From a virus: a DNA stretch of 45,668 nt. How positions within the stretch are numbered: the stretch's first letter is position 1; each line of letters starts with the position of its first letter. Below are positions 3,287 through 45,668 of the stretch, one piece after another. The stretch spans positions 1 to 45,668 of IMG/VR virus record IMGVR_UViG_3300015203_000005. The stretch is one strand, 5' to 3'. The position numbers and the translations under genes are program-made. The notes beneath the pieces were generated by a model. It searched no databases, had not been told where the DNA came from, and was given only the letters and a program-made list of their open reading frames with translations.

Positions 3287-3538
3287 ATGGTAAAGGATGA
3301 AGAAGATGTAGCAGGTATTACCGGCATTCCGGGTACTGGCAAGGCTGGAAAGAAACCAGGAAAAACTACCCCAAGTTATCTCGACAAAGATGGTAACACG
3401 GTGGATTTTAATAAACGTGTGAAGCTTAAGGCAACTGATAAGGCTTTGTTCCATAATAAGGATAAAGTGTTTGAGGCCGGATTGGTATTGGCGAATAAGA
3501 TGGTAGCTGACGGTCACGCAGAACTTGTAAAAGAATAA
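3287..3538 (+). CDS. Hypothetical head-module protein (83 aa)
   Basis: ORF 3269..3538; the first ATG after the MCP stop is 3287 (MVKDEED...). Confidence 0.5.
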   Translation: MVKDEEDVAGITGIPGTGKAGKKPGKTTPSYLDKDGNTVDFNKRVKLKATDKALFHNKDKVFEAGLVLANKMVADGHAELVKE

Positions 3539-3988: not shown

Positions 3989-4732
3989 ATGTTTATAACT
4001 GCTGCCGATTTCGGGGACATTCCATACAACTTACCGGGTATTACAAAAGCCGGTGCAGTTGATACCTTTACACAGTTTATAACTGATATGGAGGACGAGT
4101 GGCTTCGTAAGTTGGTTGGTAATCTGTTTTATGACGCTATGGTTGCCGGTGTCGGCGCCTTACCAGCTACGTGGACTGCCACTAAGGTGTACGTCATTAA
4201 TGATCTTGCCGTATATCAAAGTAAAGTATGGAAAGCGTTAGCTGCTGGGGTATTGCCTGCGCCGATTGTCGGAGTGAATTGGGCATTGAATCCTGATCCG
4301 CTCGTTGACAGGTGGTTATTGCTTCGTGACGGCAAGAGTTATAAGATTGCCAGTATTCCATCGTGTCCTACTTTTAATTGGGTGGGGATGCGGCGGATGA
4401 TTCAACCTTTGATTTATTCATTATGGTTACGAATCACGACACGAAGCAATACCGGGCAGGGCATCGTTGTTAGTGCCAATGAAAACTCGGAGTTGGTTAG
4501 TCCTGGATATGAGATCGTCAAAGCATGGCGAATTTATACCAGGGTAGCATCAAAAGCGTTTGGTTTTTCAAGGTTGCAAATCTTATCCGTGGAGAATAGT
4601 TTCTATGGGTATCTAGTAGCCAATGCAACGAACTTTAATGATGTTGTGACTGACGGCAGTTATATAGACTTTCTTACTTACATACAAAATCAATTTAATT
4701 CACCAGGTCGGATGAACGAGTTTGATATATGA
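3989..4732 (+). CDS. Head-tail module protein with one CBM5/12-like aromatic repeat
   Basis: ORF 3926..4732; ATG 3989 lies just after the upstream stop. Contains TWTATKVYVINDLAVYQSKVWKAL...NW. Confidence 0.6.
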   Translation: MFITAADFGDIPYNLPGITKAGAVDTFTQFITDMEDEWLRKLVGNLFYDAMVAGVGALPATWTATKVYVINDLAVYQSKVWKALAAGVLPAPIVGVNWALNPDPLVDRWLLLRDGKSYKIASIPSCPTFNWVGMRRMIQPLIYSLWLRITTRSNTGQGIVVSANENSELVSPGYEIVKAWRIYTRVASKAFGFSRLQILSVENSFYGYLVANATNFNDVVTDGSYIDFLTYIQNQFNSPGRMNEFDI

Positions 4733-10466: not shown

Positions 10467-12592
10467 ATAAGTCGGTACTTCGTTTTACATTATCTAATAC
10501 AACTTTAGGCATTAAGGTTATAACTGAGCCGATTGGGGCAATGGAAAATCCACTAACGCTTCAGCGAGATTGGACTCTACATTGTATACAAGAAACTTTC
10601 ACGGCCAATTTGACTATGTTTTATGAGGCGATTGATTATTTAGCTGCCGCAATTGCTATAGGTATAGATATAGATGTCAATTTATTGGTAGAAGTATCTA
10701 ATGACTATGCCGTAACGTGGGAACAGTACTATAGTGGGTTGATTGATATGGAAAGTCTTCAACCCATAGCCGATACGCGCGACTACAAAGTGCAAAATGT
10801 AATAAAGCGCAATGATCTTTGGAGTACATTTATTAATCGCAAAGATACCGTTGTGGATGTTAACTCGGCTTTGGACTTGGATGGAAATGCCGTAGCCGCG
10901 CCAATTATACTATCGCCTAATTTACCGACGCAACCGGTTGATAGACAAAGTAGAGTATCTATACATGATTACGCCGATCCAGGTAAAGTATTGCAACTTT
11001 ACTATGTGGATGGAACTATAGATGGGTGGGTACAGGATTTACCATTGGTGGTTTATGATGATTTAAAAACTAAACATAATTTGCCATCTGGGTTATCTAT
11101 TAACGTTACTGAACTTTGGTTAATGACGGTTGAGGAACCTGGTTTGTATGATTTTAATATTGATTTGCTTTTCGCTCGTAATGATGTTGCACCAGGTACT
11201 CCAAAATATAAATTAGATGCCCCCGGATTTGCTGTTACCACGCCTGGGCTATGGTTAAAAAATAGAATGGGTAGTCCTACTCTTGCTATTCCTTTAGTAA
11301 GAACTGATTTAGGAACTGATGGAGTGGACGGCTGTACTCGGTTTAAACTTGTTACGGCAGGCGTTGCGCTAGTAAAAGGAGATACCATTGCTATTGTGTT
11401 TAGACCGGTATTTGCTTCCTATCCGCAAAATATTTATACTGTTTTTGGTGGCGTAGTTATTGATCCGGCTACTGGAGTAACATTTATTAATTCTTTTATA
11501 AGTATTATTGGACATACAACTGGTACTGATTCAGTTGCACAAGGGTACTTACTAAAGGACGTAGCCGGAGCAATTATTAAACGCATAACCGGTAAAGGAT
11601 TATTCAGTAATCTTTTAAACGCAGGCGGCTGCATGTATAACTATTGGTTATGCAAAGGTATACAGATGCGGATACCGTCTTCGTTCGGCCAATATCCATT
11701 CTCCATGTCGTTTAGTGAATTTTTAAACGGCCTTGATCCAATCACCCCGGTAGGCATTGATACATACGTAGATGCTGGAACGGAAAAAATATCCATTGAG
11801 AATGCATCCGAATTTTATGACACTGCCGTATCCATAAACTTAAGTTATGTTAAGGGTATCGTGACTTCGTTTGCAAAAGGAAAGGCAACTAAGTCGGTGA
11901 AAATAGGATATGAAAAATGGCAATTGACGGCCGGCGGTTCGCTTATAGACGATCCTCAGACTCAACATACGTATGCACCACCATTAAAACGCGTAGGACA
12001 AAACATAGTCAAGTTGAGTAAGTGGATAGCTGCGTCATTGTTGTTTGAATTAACAAAGCGGGCTGGAAAACTGAAGCCCAGAGAAACATGGGACTTGGAC
12101 AATGATTTTTTTATACTTCGGCTTAAGGACGATCTTACTGGACCTGATGTAAGTGGAGCGGCTACTAATTTACTGAATCCCACTTTGCGATATAATAAAT
12201 TTTTGACTCCGGCGCGAAATTTTTTGCGTTGGTTAAAATTTTTCAACGTAGGATTAAACCCTCAGTATACAGGGTCTCCATTTCGATTTACTGGCGGGGT
12301 AGGTAATGTACTTTGTGGCGTTACGCTTAATCCGGGGTGCCCTGGTAGCCAGGTCGCGGCTCTTGTTGAAAACGCAGATGTGGCAATAACGAACAGTGTT
12401 GAGTACGGTATTAAGCAAGTTGATTTTATGCATCCGCTTAATTGGGAACAGTACAAGATAATAAAAGCAAACAGGCGAAAAGCCATAGGCGTGAGCCAAA
12501 CCGGGGATAGTTGGGTGCCTTACTTCATTGATAAGATAGACTTTTATTTCTTTAAAAAAATAGCTAAATTTACGCTTCGGGCAACAGTATGA
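10463..12592 (+). CDS. Tail tip protein (distal tail / hub candidate, ~709 aa)
   Basis: ATGA overlap with the tape measure stop. First gene after the tape measure. Confidence 0.6.
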   Translation: MNKSVLRFTLSNTTLGIKVITEPIGAMENPLTLQRDWTLHCIQETFTANLTMFYEAIDYLAAAIAIGIDIDVNLLVEVSNDYAVTWEQYYSGLIDMESLQPIADTRDYKVQNVIKRNDLWSTFINRKDTVVDVNSALDLDGNAVAAPIILSPNLPTQPVDRQSRVSIHDYADPGKVLQLYYVDGTIDGWVQDLPLVVYDDLKTKHNLPSGLSINVTELWLMTVEEPGLYDFNIDLLFARNDVAPGTPKYKLDAPGFAVTTPGLWLKNRMGSPTLAIPLVRTDLGTDGVDGCTRFKLVTAGVALVKGDTIAIVFRPVFASYPQNIYTVFGGVVIDPATGVTFINSFISIIGHTTGTDSVAQGYLLKDVAGAIIKRITGKGLFSNLLNAGGCMYNYWLCKGIQMRIPSSFGQYPFSMSFSEFLNGLDPITPVGIDTYVDAGTEKISIENASEFYDTAVSINLSYVKGIVTSFAKGKATKSVKIGYEKWQLTAGGSLIDDPQTQHTYAPPLKRVGQNIVKLSKWIAASLLFELTKRAGKLKPRETWDLDNDFFILRLKDDLTGPDVSGAATNLLNPTLRYNKFLTPARNFLRWLKFFNVGLNPQYTGSPFRFTGGVGNVLCGVTLNPGCPGSQVAALVENADVAITNSVEYGIKQVDFMHPLNWEQYKIIKANRRKAIGVSQTGDSWVPYFIDKIDFYFFKKIAKFTLRATV

Positions 12593-28327: not shown

Positions 28328-28524
28328 TATTCAAAAGAATTTCCTGAGTACTGTAAGCTACCTTTATTCGGCGGGTTACTCACCTGGATACCTTCCTCTC
28401 CTGCATGAATGGAGTACCATCCACCATCAGGGAAAGATATAAGCCACATATCAGAATGTTGTGCGCTGCGGCGAACGGTTCTGTTACCGGAGCGAAAGGC
28501 GATAATTTTTTCTTTTGTTGGCAT
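28327..28524 (-). CDS. 65-aa hypothetical protein
   Basis: ORF track. Confidence 0.5.
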   Translation of the reverse strand: MPTKEKIIAFRSGNRTVRRSAQHSDMWLISFPDGGWYSIHAGEEGIQVSNPPNKGSLQYSGNSFE

Positions 28525-28917
28525 AGTTGTAAATGGTTATAAGTTTGTAGTACACCCAGGACTCGAACCTGGCACCAAAGACTATCTCTAACTTTAGCCG
28601 CTCCACTAGCTTTGTACTTGCCCTCAAGGGTTAAGATGGAAACGCTCCATCAGGGACTCCGTTCTTGCAGCCTACTTACTTTTATCCTGCACGATTTAAG
28701 TAAGTGCTATCCCCCTCTCTACGCCACAACTATTCCCGTGGCCGGTAACTTTAATGTTTAAGCAGGCCGGTGTGGTATCTTGCTCCCCAATACTCATACA
28801 ACTACTGCTGTACTTATCGGTTCATAGCGTTCCCATACTCCGTTTACTTTTCCTACCTGCTACCGCCATCCCAATGCCTCGTCAGGGCACATCGGTGTTC
28901 GGATAGCGCAACGTTCT
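28525..28917 (-). ncRNA. 393-nt ORF-free, hairpin-rich segment ending in tRNA-like element 1 (candidate structured RNA)
   Basis: No minus-strand ORF of 60 aa or more. Hairpins at 28674-28705 (8 bp) and 28635-28651 (6 bp). Lies inside an otherwise tightly packed operon. Confidence 0.4.
28548..28618 (-). tRNA. tRNA-like element 1 (71 nt), anticodon arm not canonical
   Basis: Minus strand: AGTACAA...CCAGG-TTCGAGT-CCTGG-GTGTACT-A. 6/7-bp acceptor stem and a perfect T arm. The middle folds as a 6-bp stem CTAAAG/CTTTGG with an 11-nt loop. Confidence 0.45.
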
Positions 28918-30210: not shown

Positions 30211-30223
30211 ATAGATAGTTTTA
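30211..30223 (-). promoter_or_regulatory. Conserved leader 13-mer TAAAACTATCTAT abutting the start codon (copy 1)
   Basis: Plus strand ATAGATAGTTTTA lies directly next to the helicase ATG (30208-30210). Confidence 0.5.
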
Positions 30224-31022: not shown

Positions 31023-31222
31023 ATAAGGGCTTTTTTAGCAAAGTAATTTGCATTTTCTATCGAAGGTAAATTACCAAGCGTTCTAAACTGTTTACTCTGT
31101 TCACCATGCAAGTAAACAATAACTGTCCACCCTGTTCTAGTTTCACTTCTTAACCAGACAACGTGTTGGCCATTATTTATCCAAAATTCTGCTTTTTCTA
31201 TTTTAGTAGGTACGGTTTTCAT
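31019..31222 (-). CDS. 67-aa hypothetical protein, AT-rich
   Basis: ORF track. Confidence 0.55.
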   Translation of the reverse strand: MKTVPTKIEKAEFWINNGQHVVWLRSETRTGWTVIVYLHGEQSKQFRTLGNLPSIENANYFAKKALI

Positions 31223-31512
31223 TTCGGTAAGCGGTTAATGATAGCAGTAAGTTTATTTATGCACTTAGGTAGTAAACCTTCCCAACCGGGGGCGTTCCAA
31301 ATTGCAATTAGTTTTTGTACCTCTTGCGTTAACTCTGGTGCGATCAGTACCACGTCCTGCCCGATAAGATTAAGCGCAGCCAGGGTGGAGGCGGCATCAT
31401 TCAGTTTTTCAAGAAAAGGTACAAGGTCGGATTTTTTTGTCCGCACGTTGGCTTTCCAATTTCTTCGTGCATAGTTAACCGCACCTGTTTGTTCTTTGAT
31501 TGTGTGTTTCAT
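31219..31512 (-). CDS. 97-aa hypothetical protein
   Basis: ORF track. Start is preceded by the conserved 13-mer. Confidence 0.55.
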   Translation of the reverse strand: MKHTIKEQTGAVNYARRNWKANVRTKKSDLVPFLEKLNDAASTLAALNLIGQDVVLIAPELTQEVQKLIAIWNAPGWEGLLPKCINKLTAIINRLPK

Positions 31513-31525
31513 ATAGATAGTTTTA
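31513..31525 (-). promoter_or_regulatory. Conserved leader 13-mer TAAAACTATCTAT abutting the start codon (copy 2)
   Basis: Plus strand ATAGATAGTTTTA lies directly next to ATG 31510-31512. Confidence 0.5.
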
Positions 31526-31532
31526 ATTAAGT

Positions 31533-31631
31533 TGGCAGATGGTACTGGATTCGAACCAGTGTACTAAAGGAGCAGCGAACAGTTTAGCCATGTTCTTTTA
31601 CCCCGACCGTAGACCGCTTGGTTAACCATCT
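31533..31631 (-). tRNA. tRNA-like element 2 (99 nt including encoded CCA), type II-like D arm, extended non-canonical anticodon arm
   Basis: AGATGGT/ACCATCT perfect acceptor, ACTGG-TTCGAAT-CCAGT T arm, discriminator G + CCA. D stem ACC/GGT with loop AAGCGGTCTAC. Confidence 0.6.
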
Positions 31632-31637
31632 GTTTTT

Positions 31638-32324
31638 TTATGCACCAATTCTTTTTTGCACAAGTCCGCGTGACCAAGCCGAAAATGATACATCCTCTTT
31701 TACAAGAATTGCATCAACTTTTTTCCAATCAGCTTCGGTAAGAAACATATTGTTCCCGCGTGGGATTGTCTTTTCACCCTTTACTTTAGTGACAGGTTTT
31801 TTGGCAGCCGCTTTTCCGTTTTTCTTACTTGTTTTCATGTTTGCATTTTCGGCTGCCGCCATCGTTACAGTTTTTACTATTTTACTTTTTGGACCTTTAG
31901 CGGAAATTTTTTCGCCTTTCACATTTTCTACCTTCGGTGCGTGAGAGGGTGGAACTACTTCGCCGTTTATGTAAGCAGATTCAAATGTCCACTTATTCGT
32001 GCGGGCGCTGCCGATCTCTATACCCACGGGATCGGTTTCCTCTTCCACTAACATGGTGAATTTGTCCTTTAGGTAAGTGATATAAAATTCGCCCTCTTTT
32101 TCGTTGAGCCAGATCGTATGTTCAACGCCTTTGTTTTTCTTTGACAGCTTTACGACTAGCTGCTTTGTTGTGTTCATGTCCATATTGCGTGCATATTTAA
32201 AGTTGACAAACTTGGCTGGAAATATTGCCAGCACTTTTTCTAAGGCATTAAAAAAATTTCGGCCCTGAGCGTGAACTCTACGGACACTGGTCGGCCCACG
32301 GATAAGGAATGGATAACTGTTCAT
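31638..32324 (-). CDS. 228-aa protein with a Lys-rich central linker (DNA-binding-like)
   Basis: ORF track. Contains KKNGKAAAKKPVTKVKGEK. Confidence 0.6.
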   Translation of the reverse strand: MNSYPFLIRGPTSVRRVHAQGRNFFNALEKVLAIFPAKFVNFKYARNMDMNTTKQLVVKLSKKNKGVEHTIWLNEKEGEFYITYLKDKFTMLVEEETDPVGIEIGSARTNKWTFESAYINGEVVPPSHAPKVENVKGEKISAKGPKSKIVKTVTMAAAENANMKTSKKNGKAAAKKPVTKVKGEKTIPRGNNMFLTEADWKKVDAILVKEDVSFSAWSRGLVQKRIGA

Positions 32325-32685: not shown

Positions 32686-32698
32686 ATAGATAGTTTTA
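32686..32698 (-). promoter_or_regulatory. Conserved leader 13-mer TAAAACTATCTAT (copy 3, 4 nt from the ATG)
   Basis: Plus strand ATAGATAGTTTTA at 32686-32698. Confidence 0.5.
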
Positions 32699-32768
32699 AG
32701 TTCAACAGTTTTAAAAAATATAGCCGCCTGGTTTTCGGTAGCCTACTAGGCAAGACGCTATATTAAAA

Positions 32769-32820
32769 CTACTATACTCAAGCGGCCGTAAGTACACGGC
32801 GGCAATTACGAGTATAGTAG
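32769..32820. repeat. Perfect 11-bp inverted repeat enclosing a nested 5-bp hairpin
   Basis: CTACTATACTC ... GAGTATAGTAG, with an inner GCCGT-aagtac-ACGGC. Confidence 0.8.
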
Positions 32821-33178
32821 AATTTAAAAGAAAGCTAGTTGTTTACTTGCGTAACTCTTTACAACTTATGGACTAGCTACGCGCGTTAACGATTTACCGC
32901 CTGTGCTCAACTTTCTTTTGGTCGCAAGATGCCAAGCGAATGGCGGGCTAATAAAATGTGGTTAACTTTATTACCACTTGCGATTTCTCCTTCAGGTTCC
33001 GGCGGCTCTAGTGTCCGACGCTTACGGGCGTTTCCGGTTCTGGGTTCCAGTTCGTGTCTTGCACGGCTGTGAGTGTTTGGGAAGTCCTGCTCTTCCGGTA
33101 GTTAAACCTGCTCTAAACGCCAGATTCTATACTAACAACAAGACAAATATCATAATAAGTTATTTCTCAACCTAATTT

Positions 33179-33911: not shown

Positions 33912-34549
33912 AACTTACTTTTTATGTATTTGAGTAGACTTTTCATTTCCATCTGCGCGCTATCCAACAACGCTGGGTATTGACTAACCGCGAACGGCAT
34001 TACCACGTGTGGTTCCACCTTACTCTGGCCGATATAGTAAAAATCTTTGCGCGGCACAGCGGCCAGATAAATCGCGGCCTGCAAAAAATCCATCGCCGCC
34101 ACGAAAGCCGCCATAGCCGTTAGCTTGGTAGTCTTAAGATCACATATACTATCAGTATTGAGTATATCTATACGACCGTAGACCGGTACGCCGTAGATGG
34201 ATGGAACCACAATACCGCGTTTGGATTTATATTTATCAAGTACAGCACGCGGTCCAAAATCAATCTCATTAACGGATTTTATCAGCAACCTTTTGGCAAT
34301 CATATTGCGTTCCATCGCCTGCATCATGAGCGCCAATTTTTTTTCTTCGTCTAGCGATAAAATGGTAAGTCGTTTCTTTTCCAGTAGTCGTGAGTGGTGC
34401 TCCTTACCGAACGTGTGCCATACTTCCTCCTTGTAGGCGGTTGGTTCCACACAGTCGCGGACATTTTTTATACTACTGTAGCTGGCATACCCACGCTTAC
34501 GGATATAGTCCAATGCGGCTCGGTCGTCGTTAAATTCACTTGTAGGCAT
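33908..34549 (-). CDS. PD-(D/E)XK (RecB/Cas4-like) exonuclease
   Basis: GRIDIL ... CDLKTT ... QAAIY correspond to the D, ExK-type and QxxxY motifs. Confidence 0.7.
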   Translation of the reverse strand: MPTSEFNDDRAALDYIRKRGYASYSSIKNVRDCVEPTAYKEEVWHTFGKEHHSRLLEKKRLTILSLDEEKKLALMMQAMERNMIAKRLLIKSVNEIDFGPRAVLDKYKSKRGIVVPSIYGVPVYGRIDILNTDSICDLKTTKLTAMAAFVAAMDFLQAAIYLAAVPRKDFYYIGQSKVEPHVVMPFAVSQYPALLDSAQMEMKSLLKYIKSKL

Positions 34550-34562
34550 CTTAATTAGTTAG

Positions 34563-34639
34563 TGGAGAAACTTGGATTCGAACCACATCTCAGGTCGGAG
34601 TCCGGACGCCTGCGCTTTGCCATTAAGCTATGTTTCCCC
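34563..34639 (-). tRNA. tRNA-like element 3 (77 nt) with G3-U70 and A73; possible CCG anticodon loop, but weak anticodon stem
   Basis: GGGGAAA/TTTCTCC acceptor including G3.U70; D stem GCTT/AAGC with loop AATGGCA; TTCGAAT T loop; loop GUCCGGA fits the U33-NNN-R37 pattern. Confidence 0.55.
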
Positions 34640-34641
34640 TT

Positions 34642-34671
34642 ATAAAAAAGGCAGCCTACGGGGGCCGCCTT
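34642..34671 (-). terminator. Rho-independent terminator after the SSB-like gene
   Basis: Minus strand AAGGCGGCC-cccgta-GGCTGCCTT followed by a T-run. Confidence 0.65.
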
Positions 34672-34696
34672 TCTAACTTAAACTATCAACCAAACA

Positions 34697-44995: not shown

Positions 44996-45668
44996 ATGAA
45001 TTTGGGCCAAGTAGTTTCTGGAATAATATGTTCGGAACTATTGGTCAGAGTTCTGGGCTAGGTCGGCTTCCTGCCGATATAGGTTTTATACCTACCGATA
45101 ATAAAGGTACGACAATTCAACTCAAGGGTGAGACGGCGGTATGGTTGGGACTCAATGTTCCAATTCAGCAGAAGTATGCGTATGACTATTGTTTTCCACT
45201 TGCGTCTGTTATTGATCGGTTAGCTGAAAGTGATATTACTGGGCATGTCGAAATACTGCGTGCTACTGGCAAGGGCAAAGAAAATTTTGCAACAAACGAA
45301 TGGGCAATGCTGATGACGAAGCGGTTGCTGCAACCAAATCCACTTCAAACATGGGAGCAATTTCGTGGGCAGCAGGTGGTATATAAAAAAGTATACGGGT
45401 TTTGTCCGGTATTTCCGGTTATACCGGCAGGTTTCGGACCAGAGTTTTGTAGCAGTATGGTAAACCTACCACCCTGGTTGTTTGATGCTGAGCCGACAAA
45501 TGATTGGTTATACAAGACAAAAATAGAGGAGATAGTCAAGCGCTACCGCGTCTCAATACTTGGTAAGATTTTTTACCTAGAGCCGCAGGAAGTATTTATT
45601 CTCGAAGATAGCTTTGTACCTAATTTCCAGCGCAATTTTTTATTGCCTCAGTCGCGCCTTGTTGGATT
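44992..45668 (+). CDS. Portal protein, N-terminal part (continues at base 100 of the window through the circular junction)
   Basis: ATG 44992 is open to the window end. The frame is continuous with ORF 74..874 once the 99-bp overlap is collapsed. Confidence 0.8.
   Translation, partial: MNEFGPSSFWNNMFGTIGQSSGLGRLPADIGFIPTDNKGTTIQLKGETAVWLGLNVPIQQKYAYDYCFPLASVIDRLAESDITGHVEILRATGKGKENFATNEWAMLMTKRLLQPNPLQTWEQFRGQQVVYKKVYGFCPVFPVIPAGFGPEFCSSMVNLPPWLFDAEPTNDWLYKTKIEEIVKRYRVSILGKIFYLEPQEVFILEDSFVPNFQRNFLLPQSRLVG
45570..45668. repeat. Terminal overlap identical to 1-99
   Basis: See the first feature. Confidence 0.95.

Follow-up and report, generated by a model that had tools for sequence, protein, structure and literature searches.

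The phage genome of IMG/VR record IMGVR_UViG_3300015203_000005 (45,668 nucleotides (nt), referred to at its full length as the window) contains a 99-nt element, here termed famA, on the minus strand at positions 31533–31631. famA has the structure of a transfer RNA (tRNA) whose anticodon arm is replaced by a 36-nt bipartite hairpin. It does not decode, it is held by purifying selection, its stems covary, and it occupies a fixed position between two open reading frames (ORFs), the upstream ORF228 and the downstream ORF97, in a slot where it is interchangeable with other tRNA-like modules. About even confidence is given to the proposal that famA is a tRNA-shaped processing punctuation, which would be cut by RNase P and RNase Z and thereby release a stable tRNA-shaped RNA. 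famA is absent from Rfam, and no description of it or of tRNA-like punctuation in phages was found in the literature, where a generic remark states that phage metagenomes hold tRNA-like candidates (PMC10690425).

Read from 31631 down to 31533, the element is AGATGGT-TA-ACC-AAGCGGTCTAC-GGT-C-GGGGTA-AAA-GAACA-TGGCTAAAC-TGTTC-GC-TGCTCC-TTTAGTAC-ACTGG-TTCGAAT-CCAGT-ACCATCT-G-CCA, and every coordinate assigned to it in an earlier sequence-only reading of the window is correct. Three parts are those of a canonical tRNA, namely the 7-base-pair (bp) acceptor stem, the D arm with G18–G19, and the T arm with its TTCRANY loop. The 5′ strand of the acceptor stem, AGATGGT (31625–31631), forms 7/7 pairs in 4/4 sequences with ACCATCT, which together with the discriminator G (31536) and the CCA (31533–31535) makes up positions 31533–31543. 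U8 and A9 lead into the D arm (31606–31624 for both), where a 3-bp stem ACC/GGT closes the 11-nt loop AAGCGGTCTAC; this region holds A14, G15, G18, G19, and A21, is invariant in 4/4 sequences, and is directly followed by C26. The T arm ACTGG-TTCGAAT-CCAGT (31544–31560) combines a perfect 5-bp stem with a consensus loop, and the acceptor/T-stem geometry is 7/5. An 8-nt variable region, TTTAGTAC (31561–31568), contains one variable or indel column (T/A/gap) and ends in C48, a potential Levitt partner of G15. On a reading of the sequence, all nucleotides that make tertiary contacts in the tRNA core are present: U8, A14, A21, G15–C48, G18–G19/T loop, and G53–C61.

Between the D and T arms, no canonical anticodon stem of 5 bp closing a 7-nt loop (U33, purine 37) is present. 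Its place is taken by a hairpin of 36 nt (6 + 3 + 5 + 9 + 5 + 2 + 6) at 31569–31604. The outer stem GGGGTA/TGCTCC (31599–31604 with 31569–31574) includes three pairs with compensatory or one-sided changes and is separated by an invariant internal loop, AAA/GC, from the inner stem GAACA/TGTTC (31591–31595 with 31577–31581), which shows a single C-A break in the homologue of contig L014. The 9-nt apical loop TGGCTAAAC (31582–31590) is invariant. The minimum free energy fold recovers the acceptor stem, the T arm, and both hairpin stems, and the stems of the hairpin are the same as those obtained by comparison of homologues. The bipartite hairpin described in the sequence-only reading is thus confirmed by folding and backed by covariation, and the perfect acceptor stem with U8, the type II-like 3-bp D stem with its 11-nt GG-containing loop, and the perfect T arm with discriminator G are all present as it had listed them. 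The folding energy itself is not significant (z = −1.65; 13/200 shuffles fold equally well), and thermodynamics alone therefore proves nothing. A pseudoknot between CUAAA of the apical loop and UUUAG of the variable region was rejected as sterically implausible, there being no linker that could span the ~12-bp arm; its fifth pair is also lost in the relatives.

The element fits closely between its neighbors, all in minus-strand orientation. Its 5′ end, A31631, lies 6 nt past the stop codon of ORF228 (31638..32324), and its CCA ends 20 nt ahead of the ATG of ORF97 at 31512 (31219..31512), exactly the spacing first reported. The 20-nt A/U-rich leader ACTTAATTAAAACTATCTAT (31513–31532) connects famA to this ATG, and famA is found 20 nt upstream of it, with a conserved leader, in all four phages that carry the element. 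A motif of the ORF97 leader, AAAACTATC, recurs just upstream of other same-strand starts at 30214–30222 and 32689–32697, and the leader itself contains no Shine-Dalgarno sequence. No TAnnTTTG-type box that could serve as a promoter of famA itself is present upstream, and a consensus scan of the window reveals no terminator-like site between ORF228 and famA.

Related contigs, denoted here by L numbers, were reached via homologues of ORF228. DNA pattern scans of IMG/VR and the JGI metagenomes place famA in only three other phages, L001 (= L002), L011 (= L015), and L014 (= L016), which amounts to four sequence variants in the collections searched. No close relative of the phage is found in INPHARED at the DNA or protein level. 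Further famA homologues are retrieved neither by an exact 3′-half pattern nor by the flanking protein in IMG/VR, and a pattern combining the D loop and T loop adds none from the same database. Combining the D loop and apical loop returns the same contigs and one spurious match from the JGI metagenomes, while a loop-only pattern with a 7-N spacer, which 6-N variants escape, reveals no new homologue. A genome scan recovers only two genuine type-II tRNAs with the same D loop (L018 and L019).

Across the four variants (alignment A1, 99 element columns), 87/99 columns are invariant. The 12 variable columns comprise nine stem positions and three unpaired ones, the latter being one column in the variable region, one in the T loop (where L001 has C in place of T), and the second position of the CCA. 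The genome-encoded CCA noted in the sequence-only reading exists in the window and is peculiar to it; it is not conserved, with CTA in L001, L011, and L014. On the described structure 99% of the pair cells of the four sequences are paired, and sliding the 3′ partners cuts pairing to 27–52%. Compensatory changes affect four pairs, acceptor pair 3–70, where A-U becomes G-C, and pairs 2, 3, and 4 of the outer stem, whose changes include G-U pairing, so that the covariation across homologous phage contigs named as a check in the sequence-only reading is indeed observed. A covariance model built from A1 (R1) scores 134.8 bits on famA and 133–137 bits on the three homologues.

[quoted passage not shown] Fourfold degenerate sites of the adjacent helicase gene are 37–39% identical, i.e., saturated. 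Since silent sites are saturated while the D loop, the AAA/GC loop, the apical loop, and the linker are invariant, famA is under strong purifying selection. A small ORF that runs through the element was considered as a possible cause and rejected: it spans 22 codons from an ATG in the arm, 19 codons in L001, and eight in L011 and L014, where a 1-nt indel destroys the frame, and a coding role is therefore not conserved. As no other small ORF traverses famA, the constraint on the element acts on the RNA and not on a peptide.

Known families that share features with famA do not accommodate it. With default settings, ARAGORN reports 0 tRNAs and 0 tmRNAs (transfer-messenger RNAs) across the whole window. 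The Rfam tRNA model (RF00005) gives no match over famA at the gathering score or at E ≤ 10; at the gathering score the window has a single tRNA match, at 34563–34637 and thus away from famA, and over famA itself Rfam produces solely a partial tmRNA match of 8 bits on the T arm, against a gathering score of 47. With respect to the tRNA, tmRNA, tRNA-Sec/allo-tRNA, and C4/CI-type families, famA in each case lacks a defining feature for which it was tested. In place of the G3:U70 pair of tmRNA, pair 3–70 is A-U or G-C. A mini-tmRNA, suggested by the arm sequence GCU AAA CUG UUC GCU GCU (AKLFAA), was also rejected: no stop codon is conserved, the indel shifts the frame in L011 and L014, and the missing G3:U70 and the 8-bit Rfam score apply to it as well. 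The 7/5 geometry differs from the 8/5, 9/4, 8/4, or 9/3 geometry of tRNA-Sec and allo-tRNAs. Finally, a C4/CI-type antisense function would imply complementary phage targets for the loop, and none are found beyond chance; GTTTAGCCA with at most one mismatch has 19 matches in the genome, compared with 13.3 ± 3.3 expected, and its sole exact match is famA itself.

The occupants of the same slot in related phages point to what famA may do there. Most related contigs contain an ORF228 homologue followed by some tRNA-like module (in L007, the module precedes it). The modules found after ORF228 homologues have other middles than famA: these are absent, consist of 4–5-nt or 9-nt loops, or hold inserts of 59 nt to ~150 nt. 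In L003 and L022, the ORF97 homologue (38% identity and E 3e-15 in L003) is preceded by a non-homologous module without an anticodon arm instead of famA, and yet other module types occur in L004, L005, L006, L007, and L010. famA can thus be exchanged for other tRNA-like modules in one and the same slot. Most of these modules share the acceptor stem together with the T arm, which form the minimal unit recognized by RNase P, RNase Z, and the CCA-adding enzyme. A strict scan of 11 loci on both strands for T arms with a perfect 5-bp stem including G53–C61 and a TTCRANY loop yields 13 matches, all of them with at least 6/7 acceptor pairs and all on the strand of the neighboring genes. Apart from one match that overlaps the start of the next gene, 0/13 lie inside a same-strand ORF, and 9/13 are positioned 2–30 nt before the next ATG, with a tenth (L001 4703) if an uncalled start at 4729 is used.

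In sister phages, positions equivalent to those of the tRNA-like modules are held by hammerhead ribozymes. These lie in early regions at 3306–3361 of L009 and 3019–3061 of L007/L008, have intact CUGAUGA...GAAA cores, and are found 25 nt (L009) and 3 nt (L007) upstream of start codons; their scores of 35.8 bits (type III, E 5.5e-4) and 23.3 bits (type I) are both below the gathering score. Processing between cistrons is suggested by these three observations together, i.e., the interchangeability of modules in the slot, their location directly before starts, and their replacement by self-cleaving ribozymes in sister phages. Among the functions raised in the sequence-only reading, a non-decoding mimic that serves as RNase P/RNase Z punctuation fits this evidence best.

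We infer a pathway in which famA would be transcribed within the leftward early operon and, owing to its intact tRNA top half and elbow, would be a substrate of the host tRNA-maturation machinery. The features proposed for recognition are the 7-bp acceptor stem, the 5-bp T stem, the T loop, the GG-containing D loop, U8-A14-A21, G15-C48, and G53-C61. RNase P would cut the 5′ end between 31632 and 31631, 6 nt past the ORF228 stop codon, RNase Z or exonucleases would trim at G73, and the CCA-adding enzyme would finish the 3′ end, a step that would be needed in the relatives that encode CTA. The ORF228 message, ending just past its stop codon, would thereby be separated from an ORF97 message left with a ~20-nt unstructured A-rich leader, and a stable RNA of ~96–99 nt would be released. 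RNase P has been described to cut phage C4 and M3 RNAs as well as operon mRNAs (PMC11143913). Since the loops of the 36-nt arm are invariant and the arm is not needed for the cut, it most likely provides a sequence-specific binding surface for a partner of the released RNA, and the excised RNA may have a job of its own.

Several points weigh against processing punctuation as the function of famA. On its own it leaves the invariant internal loop and the 9-nt apical loop unexplained. The slot is empty in L021, where the ORF97 homologue comes directly after a terminator, and ORF97 expression therefore does not require famA. The famA copy of L001 has an intrinsic-terminator-like hairpin ~25 nt upstream of it, and a second tRNA-like module of the window (34563–34639) also follows a terminator, so that read-through into these modules may be low. 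Position −1 of famA is not conserved (C, T, A, A). Furthermore, the covariation statistics are thin, with four variants and 9/500 shuffles reaching the observed score, and both transcription and cleavage of famA are deduced from the sequence.

Among described systems, famA would work most like a t-element or a tRNA mimic of the mascRNA type, from which it differs by keeping the complete tRNA core together with a conserved extended arm. The t-elements of plant mitochondria are non-canonical tRNA-like structures with a GGTTCRANYCC motif, whose cleavage by RNase P and RNase Z, proposed in general and demonstrated at cox1, ccmC, and nad6, creates 5′ and 3′ ends of mRNAs and which, once excised, accumulate and receive non-encoded C/A (Hanic-Joyce, 1990; Forner et al., 2007; PMC1920247). 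Such processing signals form a class by function and not by homology. famA likewise presents a non-canonical cloverleaf that retains the conserved GGTTCRANYCC T arm and an acceptor-like stem, is co-oriented with the genes, and abuts ORF boundaries in what would be a long transcript. In contrast to famA with its full tRNA core and invariant 36-nt bipartite arm, t-elements are organellar and represent degenerate tRNA remnants without a conserved extra domain; their ends have been mapped on RNA, whereas famA is known from its sequence. In animal mitochondria, punctuating tRNAs, and at the 3′ ends of MALAT1 (mascRNA) and MEN-beta, tRNA-shaped modules recruit RNase P and RNase Z and define the ends of the flanking RNAs. 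The released mascRNA is CCA-tailed and non-decoding. Unlike famA, mascRNA is eukaryotic and has a shortened anticodon region, and the mitochondrial punctuating tRNAs also decode.

Phages offer further parallels. Bacteriophage T4 produces two stable RNAs, species 1 and 2 (rnaC and rnaD), which are non-decoding, have tRNA-like ends, and are processed by the tRNA machinery; unlike famA, they reside inside a real tRNA gene cluster, they differ from it in size and fold, and they have no sequence relationship to it. The CI RNA of phage P4 is a regulatory RNA matured by RNase P. The same holds for the C4 antisense RNA of P1/P7 and the M3 RNA of phi80 (PMC11143913). As proposed for famA, these small phage RNAs are matured from longer transcripts through tRNA-like features, but they base-pair to defined phage targets in trans and do so without a full tRNA core. 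Hammerhead ribozymes flank genes in phage and prophage transcripts and have been proposed to cut polycistronic RNA into gene-length mRNAs, one of them being located 13 nt upstream of the start codon of an early helicase (Perreault et al., 2011; PMC3088659). The proposed job is the same as that of famA, while the two are structurally unrelated and hammerheads cleave themselves where famA would need host enzymes. With regard to tRNA-derived folds, the type-II tRNAs (Ser, Leu, Tyr) share with famA the 3-bp D stem and the 11-nt loop AAGCGGTCTAC, which is identical in the tRNAs of L018 and L019, whereas famA has a 36-nt arm and an 8-nt linker in place of the anticodon arm and the variable arm and fails the detectors. 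In the tRNA-like domain of tmRNA, too, an acceptor stem, a T arm, and a D-loop mimic come together, and the helix that extends from the core is not an anticodon helix; famA differs in its length (99 nt vs. >230 nt) and in the absence of both G3:U70 and a conserved tag ORF.

The alternative with the best claim after processing punctuation, possible though rather unlikely, is that the released tRNA-shaped RNA is itself the product and that processing is only its route of biogenesis. It would titrate a host factor by acting in trans as a mimic or decoy, which might bear a CCA tail or even be aminoacylated; candidate targets are a defense toxin acting on tRNA acceptor ends or a tRNA-binding enzyme, and the arm could bind a specific protein or RNA. 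Invariant arm loops, D loop, and variable region at saturation represent more constraint than a cleavage signal needs, and every tertiary-contact nucleotide of a tRNA is kept in famA. The element also carries G2:C71, C11:G24, and G73 next to its 3-bp D stem, features that belong to the identity elements of E. coli tRNA-Ser, whose synthetase SerRS recognizes its tRNA without reading the anticodon. The AbiE/MenT family includes toxins that target the acceptor ends of tRNAs and prefer tRNA-Ser (PMC7450476, PMC10435456). However, A1:U72 and the variable pair 3:70 are unlike the acceptor stem of tRNA-Ser, and related phages have non-homologous modules in the slot of famA or lack it there. A partner was not found either, given that the complement of the apical loop occurs in the genome at chance level and that ORF228 is without a recognizable fold.

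A more specific form of this idea, which is unlikely, regards the excised RNA as a tRNA mimic built for the purpose, with acceptor-end and elbow features, perhaps including tRNA-Ser identity for CCA-tailing or charging, that acts in trans and is unable to decode. Two candidate modes are conceivable. The RNA could serve as a decoy or sponge against anti-phage systems that target tRNA acceptor ends (MenT/AbiEii-type nucleotidyltransferases, CapRel-type pyrophosphokinases, or tRNA acetyltransferases), or it could be the RNA subunit of a phage ribonucleoprotein assembled via the invariant 9-nt loop. A decoy for anticodon nucleases, one of the functions considered in the sequence-only reading, finds no support, as the apical loop mimics no anticodon loop. 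If the trans-acting mimic were true, the diverse modules of these phages would constitute an RNA-based counter-defense arsenal and not mere punctuation.

Improbable, too, is a cis-acting operator in the 5′ untranslated region, where a protein would bind the arm and control the translation or stability of ORF97 while the tRNA-like body serves as a scaffold. The constant 20-nt distance to the ORF97 ATG with its conserved leader and the invariance of the arm loops would both suit such an operator. Conversely, ORF97 homologues are found in contexts with a different module (L003, L022) or with none (L021), and the full set of tRNA tertiary contacts would be unnecessary for a simple operator.

That famA is a decoding tRNA after all is highly improbable. 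It would either lose a 19–21-nt “intron” to become tRNA-Arg(UCG) or tRNA-Ala(CGC), or decode through its 9-nt loop, e.g., as a CUA amber suppressor. The first variant derives from ARAGORN with the intron option (-i) at the default threshold, whose one and only call in the window is famA, as “tRNA-Ala(cgc), 21-nt intron at 31/32,” in a model whose anticodon stem has 4 bp and whose position 37 is U. Of the two outcomes of ARAGORN, the default result is thus consistent with the sequence-only reading, while the intron option does call the element. Lowered thresholds (-ps90, -ps80, -ps70) give dozens to more than 150 calls in the window and are uninformative. The calls disagree between near-identical homologues, those of L011 and L014 being reported as tRNA-Arg(tcg) with a 19-nt intron and that of L001 remaining uncalled, so that neither intron position nor anticodon is consistent across the family, and the intron call on famA is treated as an artefact. 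A hidden canonical tRNA was rejected after all contiguous excisions from the 26 nt inside GGGGU/GCUCC had been enumerated by hand: only GUUCGCU and AUUCGCU provide U33, both with C37, an intron at position 37/38 leaves A33, and no excision yields a loop with U33 and a purine at 37. A pyrimidine thus occupies position 37 after every possible excision, and the absence of any 5-bp stem with a 7-nt U33/R37 loop noted in the sequence-only reading is upheld.

A means of removing such an insert is lacking as well. The 19–21 nt are far too few for a group I intron, and famA has no bulge-helix-bulge motif, its internal loop being 3 × 2 at one level and not two 3-nt bulges 4 bp apart; the ORF scans of the window found no endonuclease or ligase gene. 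To our knowledge, there is no bacterial pathway that removes a 19–21-nt tRNA insert. The second variant draws on the apical loop, which contains CUA followed by AA, but the arm would then be 11 bp long with an internal loop and would present G at 33. An amber suppressor or another form of stop-codon recoding is ruled out by the use of all three stop codons in the window (TAA 28, TGA 26, TAG 14; coding density 93.5%), which keeps the standard code, and famA is therefore not a suppressor tRNA. Taken together, the missing U33/R37 loop, the inconsistent intron calls, and the standard code disfavor the tRNA with an anticodon-arm insertion that had been considered alongside the mimic.

Very improbable is a role at the level of DNA, be it as replication origin, as a site of recombination or module exchange, or as a tRNA-derived attachment (att) site. 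The location of famA within the replication module and the patchy distribution of tRNA-like modules, which are exchanged between phages in the same slot, would be compatible with it. No integrase, however, is present among the 50 larger ORFs scanned, and famA has both halves of the acceptor stem, whereas att sites usually carry only the 3′ part of a tRNA. The compensatory changes in the outer stem preserve RNA pairing that tolerates G-U, the strand-specific consensus loops of tRNA are conserved, and all modules are co-oriented with transcription. A decaying tRNA pseudogene without present function is close to refuted by conservation, since 87/99 invariant columns stand against 37–39% identity at neutral sites and the substitutions are concentrated in stems and compensated, even though the D arm matches genuine type-II tRNAs and the phage is without intact tRNA genes (ARAGORN default).

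Two more tRNA-like modules lie on the minus strand of the window, and R1 detects both of them weakly. The first, at 34563..34639, scores 16.1 bits with R1 and 29.5 bits with the Rfam tRNA model (gathering score 29). It is located directly after an intrinsic terminator (~34662–34690) and 13 nt before an ATG at 34549, has an imperfect T stem, and shows an oversized “anticodon” region, in which 14 nt are inserted at a place where 9 nt would be expected from the model. Read in an alternative register, the module has a perfect 7-bp acceptor stem, GGGGAAA/TTTCTCC, with G3:U70, but 4 nt then precede the D stem. No homologue of this module is found in the same slot of L007, L009, or L011, where the terminator stands alone. 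The second module, at 28548..28618 (14.7 bits with R1), represents a type termed famB, which consists of an acceptor stem, a D arm, a T arm, and a 14-nt linker without an anticodon arm; it ends 23 nt before an ATG at 28524.

The famB module forms the 3′ end of a 393-nt non-coding stretch after the helicase gene (28525–28917, minus strand), of which the 300 nt upstream of the module look highly structured and have no Rfam match. Relatives of the famB type are seen in L001, L003, L005, L011, and L022. A conserved hairpin, GCCCGATTRATGCGGGT, occurs immediately 5′ of famB modules in L001 (4572), L003 (4720), L005 (1787), L011 (10994), and L022 (130); the modules with this hairpin have the acceptor stem TAGTGYT.../...ARCACTA-C, and a cut by RNase P would leave the hairpin at the 3′ terminus of the upstream RNA. 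In L011, positions 10777–11120 retain only the first ~35 codons of the helicase, followed by ~240 nt of non-coding, RNA-like sequence that includes a famB module in addition to two T-arm-like hairpins. L014 (576–621), L011 (9548–9593), and L001 (1292–1340) share a ~46-nt mini tRNA-like element, in which GTACAGA...TCTGTAC encloses a GCGC hairpin together with a stem of 3 bp around TTCGAT. Covariation is seen in this short stem (CAG/CTG vs. CGC/GCG), and in L011 and L014 the element lies 24 nt before an ATG.

Terminators and leaders accompany these modules in several of the phages. The same terminator-like element, GATGTGTTAAGCGTGAGCAATACA..GTRCGGATGCGGYAC-TTTTTT, stands before famA in L001 (1620–1690) and before the ORF97 homologue in L021 (~100–165), which indicates a presence/absence polymorphism of the tRNA-like module. 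A non-coding leader of ~250–450 nt after a Bacteroidota-type promoter is seen in the window (~32690–33160, minus strand), L004 (3205–3430), L007 (2790–3020), and L009 (3060–3300). The leader of the window shares 71% DNA identity with that of L004 and has the motif GGAACCCA[AG]A in common with L007 and L009. In the latter two, the leader ends in the hammerhead just before the first ATG, and in the window its end is formed by a long hairpin and a terminator-like hairpin (~32715–32830). The leader belongs to no Rfam family and may be an undescribed large structured leader RNA.

The window begins and ends with the same 99 nt (1–99 and 45570–45668 are identical), and this terminal overlap marks it as a complete circular assembly of ~45.6 kb. 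The plus strand encodes a portal protein, a protease, a major head protein and other virion proteins, an endolysin, and a terminase, in addition to a family-A DNA polymerase, a methyltransferase, and a primase. A leftward early module comprises an SSB-like protein, a PD-(D/E)XK nuclease, an ERCC4 nuclease, and a Dda/PIF1 helicase. The phage is considered lytic, and its leftward early (replication) operon is the one to which famA belongs; the ORF scans of the window found no tRNA-related enzyme. The host is probably a member of the Bacteroidota, as judged from start codons that are preceded by A-rich AAAACTAT(C) with no Shine-Dalgarno sequence, from a perfect TTG-N19-TATATTTG promoter in one relative, and from helicase matches, the best of which include phages of Bacteroides and Flavobacterium.

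ORF228, the gene upstream of famA, encodes a protein in which a Lys-rich linker joins an N-terminal to a C-terminal domain. In its family (homologues P0002–P0018) the N-terminal domain is conserved and the linker variable; the C-terminal motif PRGNNMFLTEAEWKKVDAIL.KE..SFSAWSRGLV is highly conserved, with some members replacing the C-terminus entirely. By eye, this motif resembles a ribbon-helix-helix fold. ORF228 has no Pfam or PHROG match, and its AF2 model (mean pLDDT 70.5) has no PDB match at E ≤ 0.001.

Provided that processing is indeed the role of famA, it and its fellow modules would be the phage counterpart of mitochondrial tRNA punctuation and t-elements, with early operons being cut into gene-length messages via host RNase P and RNase Z, a task that would fall to hammerhead ribozymes in sister phages. 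The model would also account for conserved intergenic elements that tRNA finders miss or call incorrectly, as illustrated here by the bogus intron-containing tRNA-Ala reported by ARAGORN -i. Finally, the invariant 36-nt arm indicates that the excised RNA would be no mere by-product and offers a starting point toward a function of tRNA mimics, be it as decoy, sponge, or ribonucleoprotein subunit, in the conflict between phage and host.

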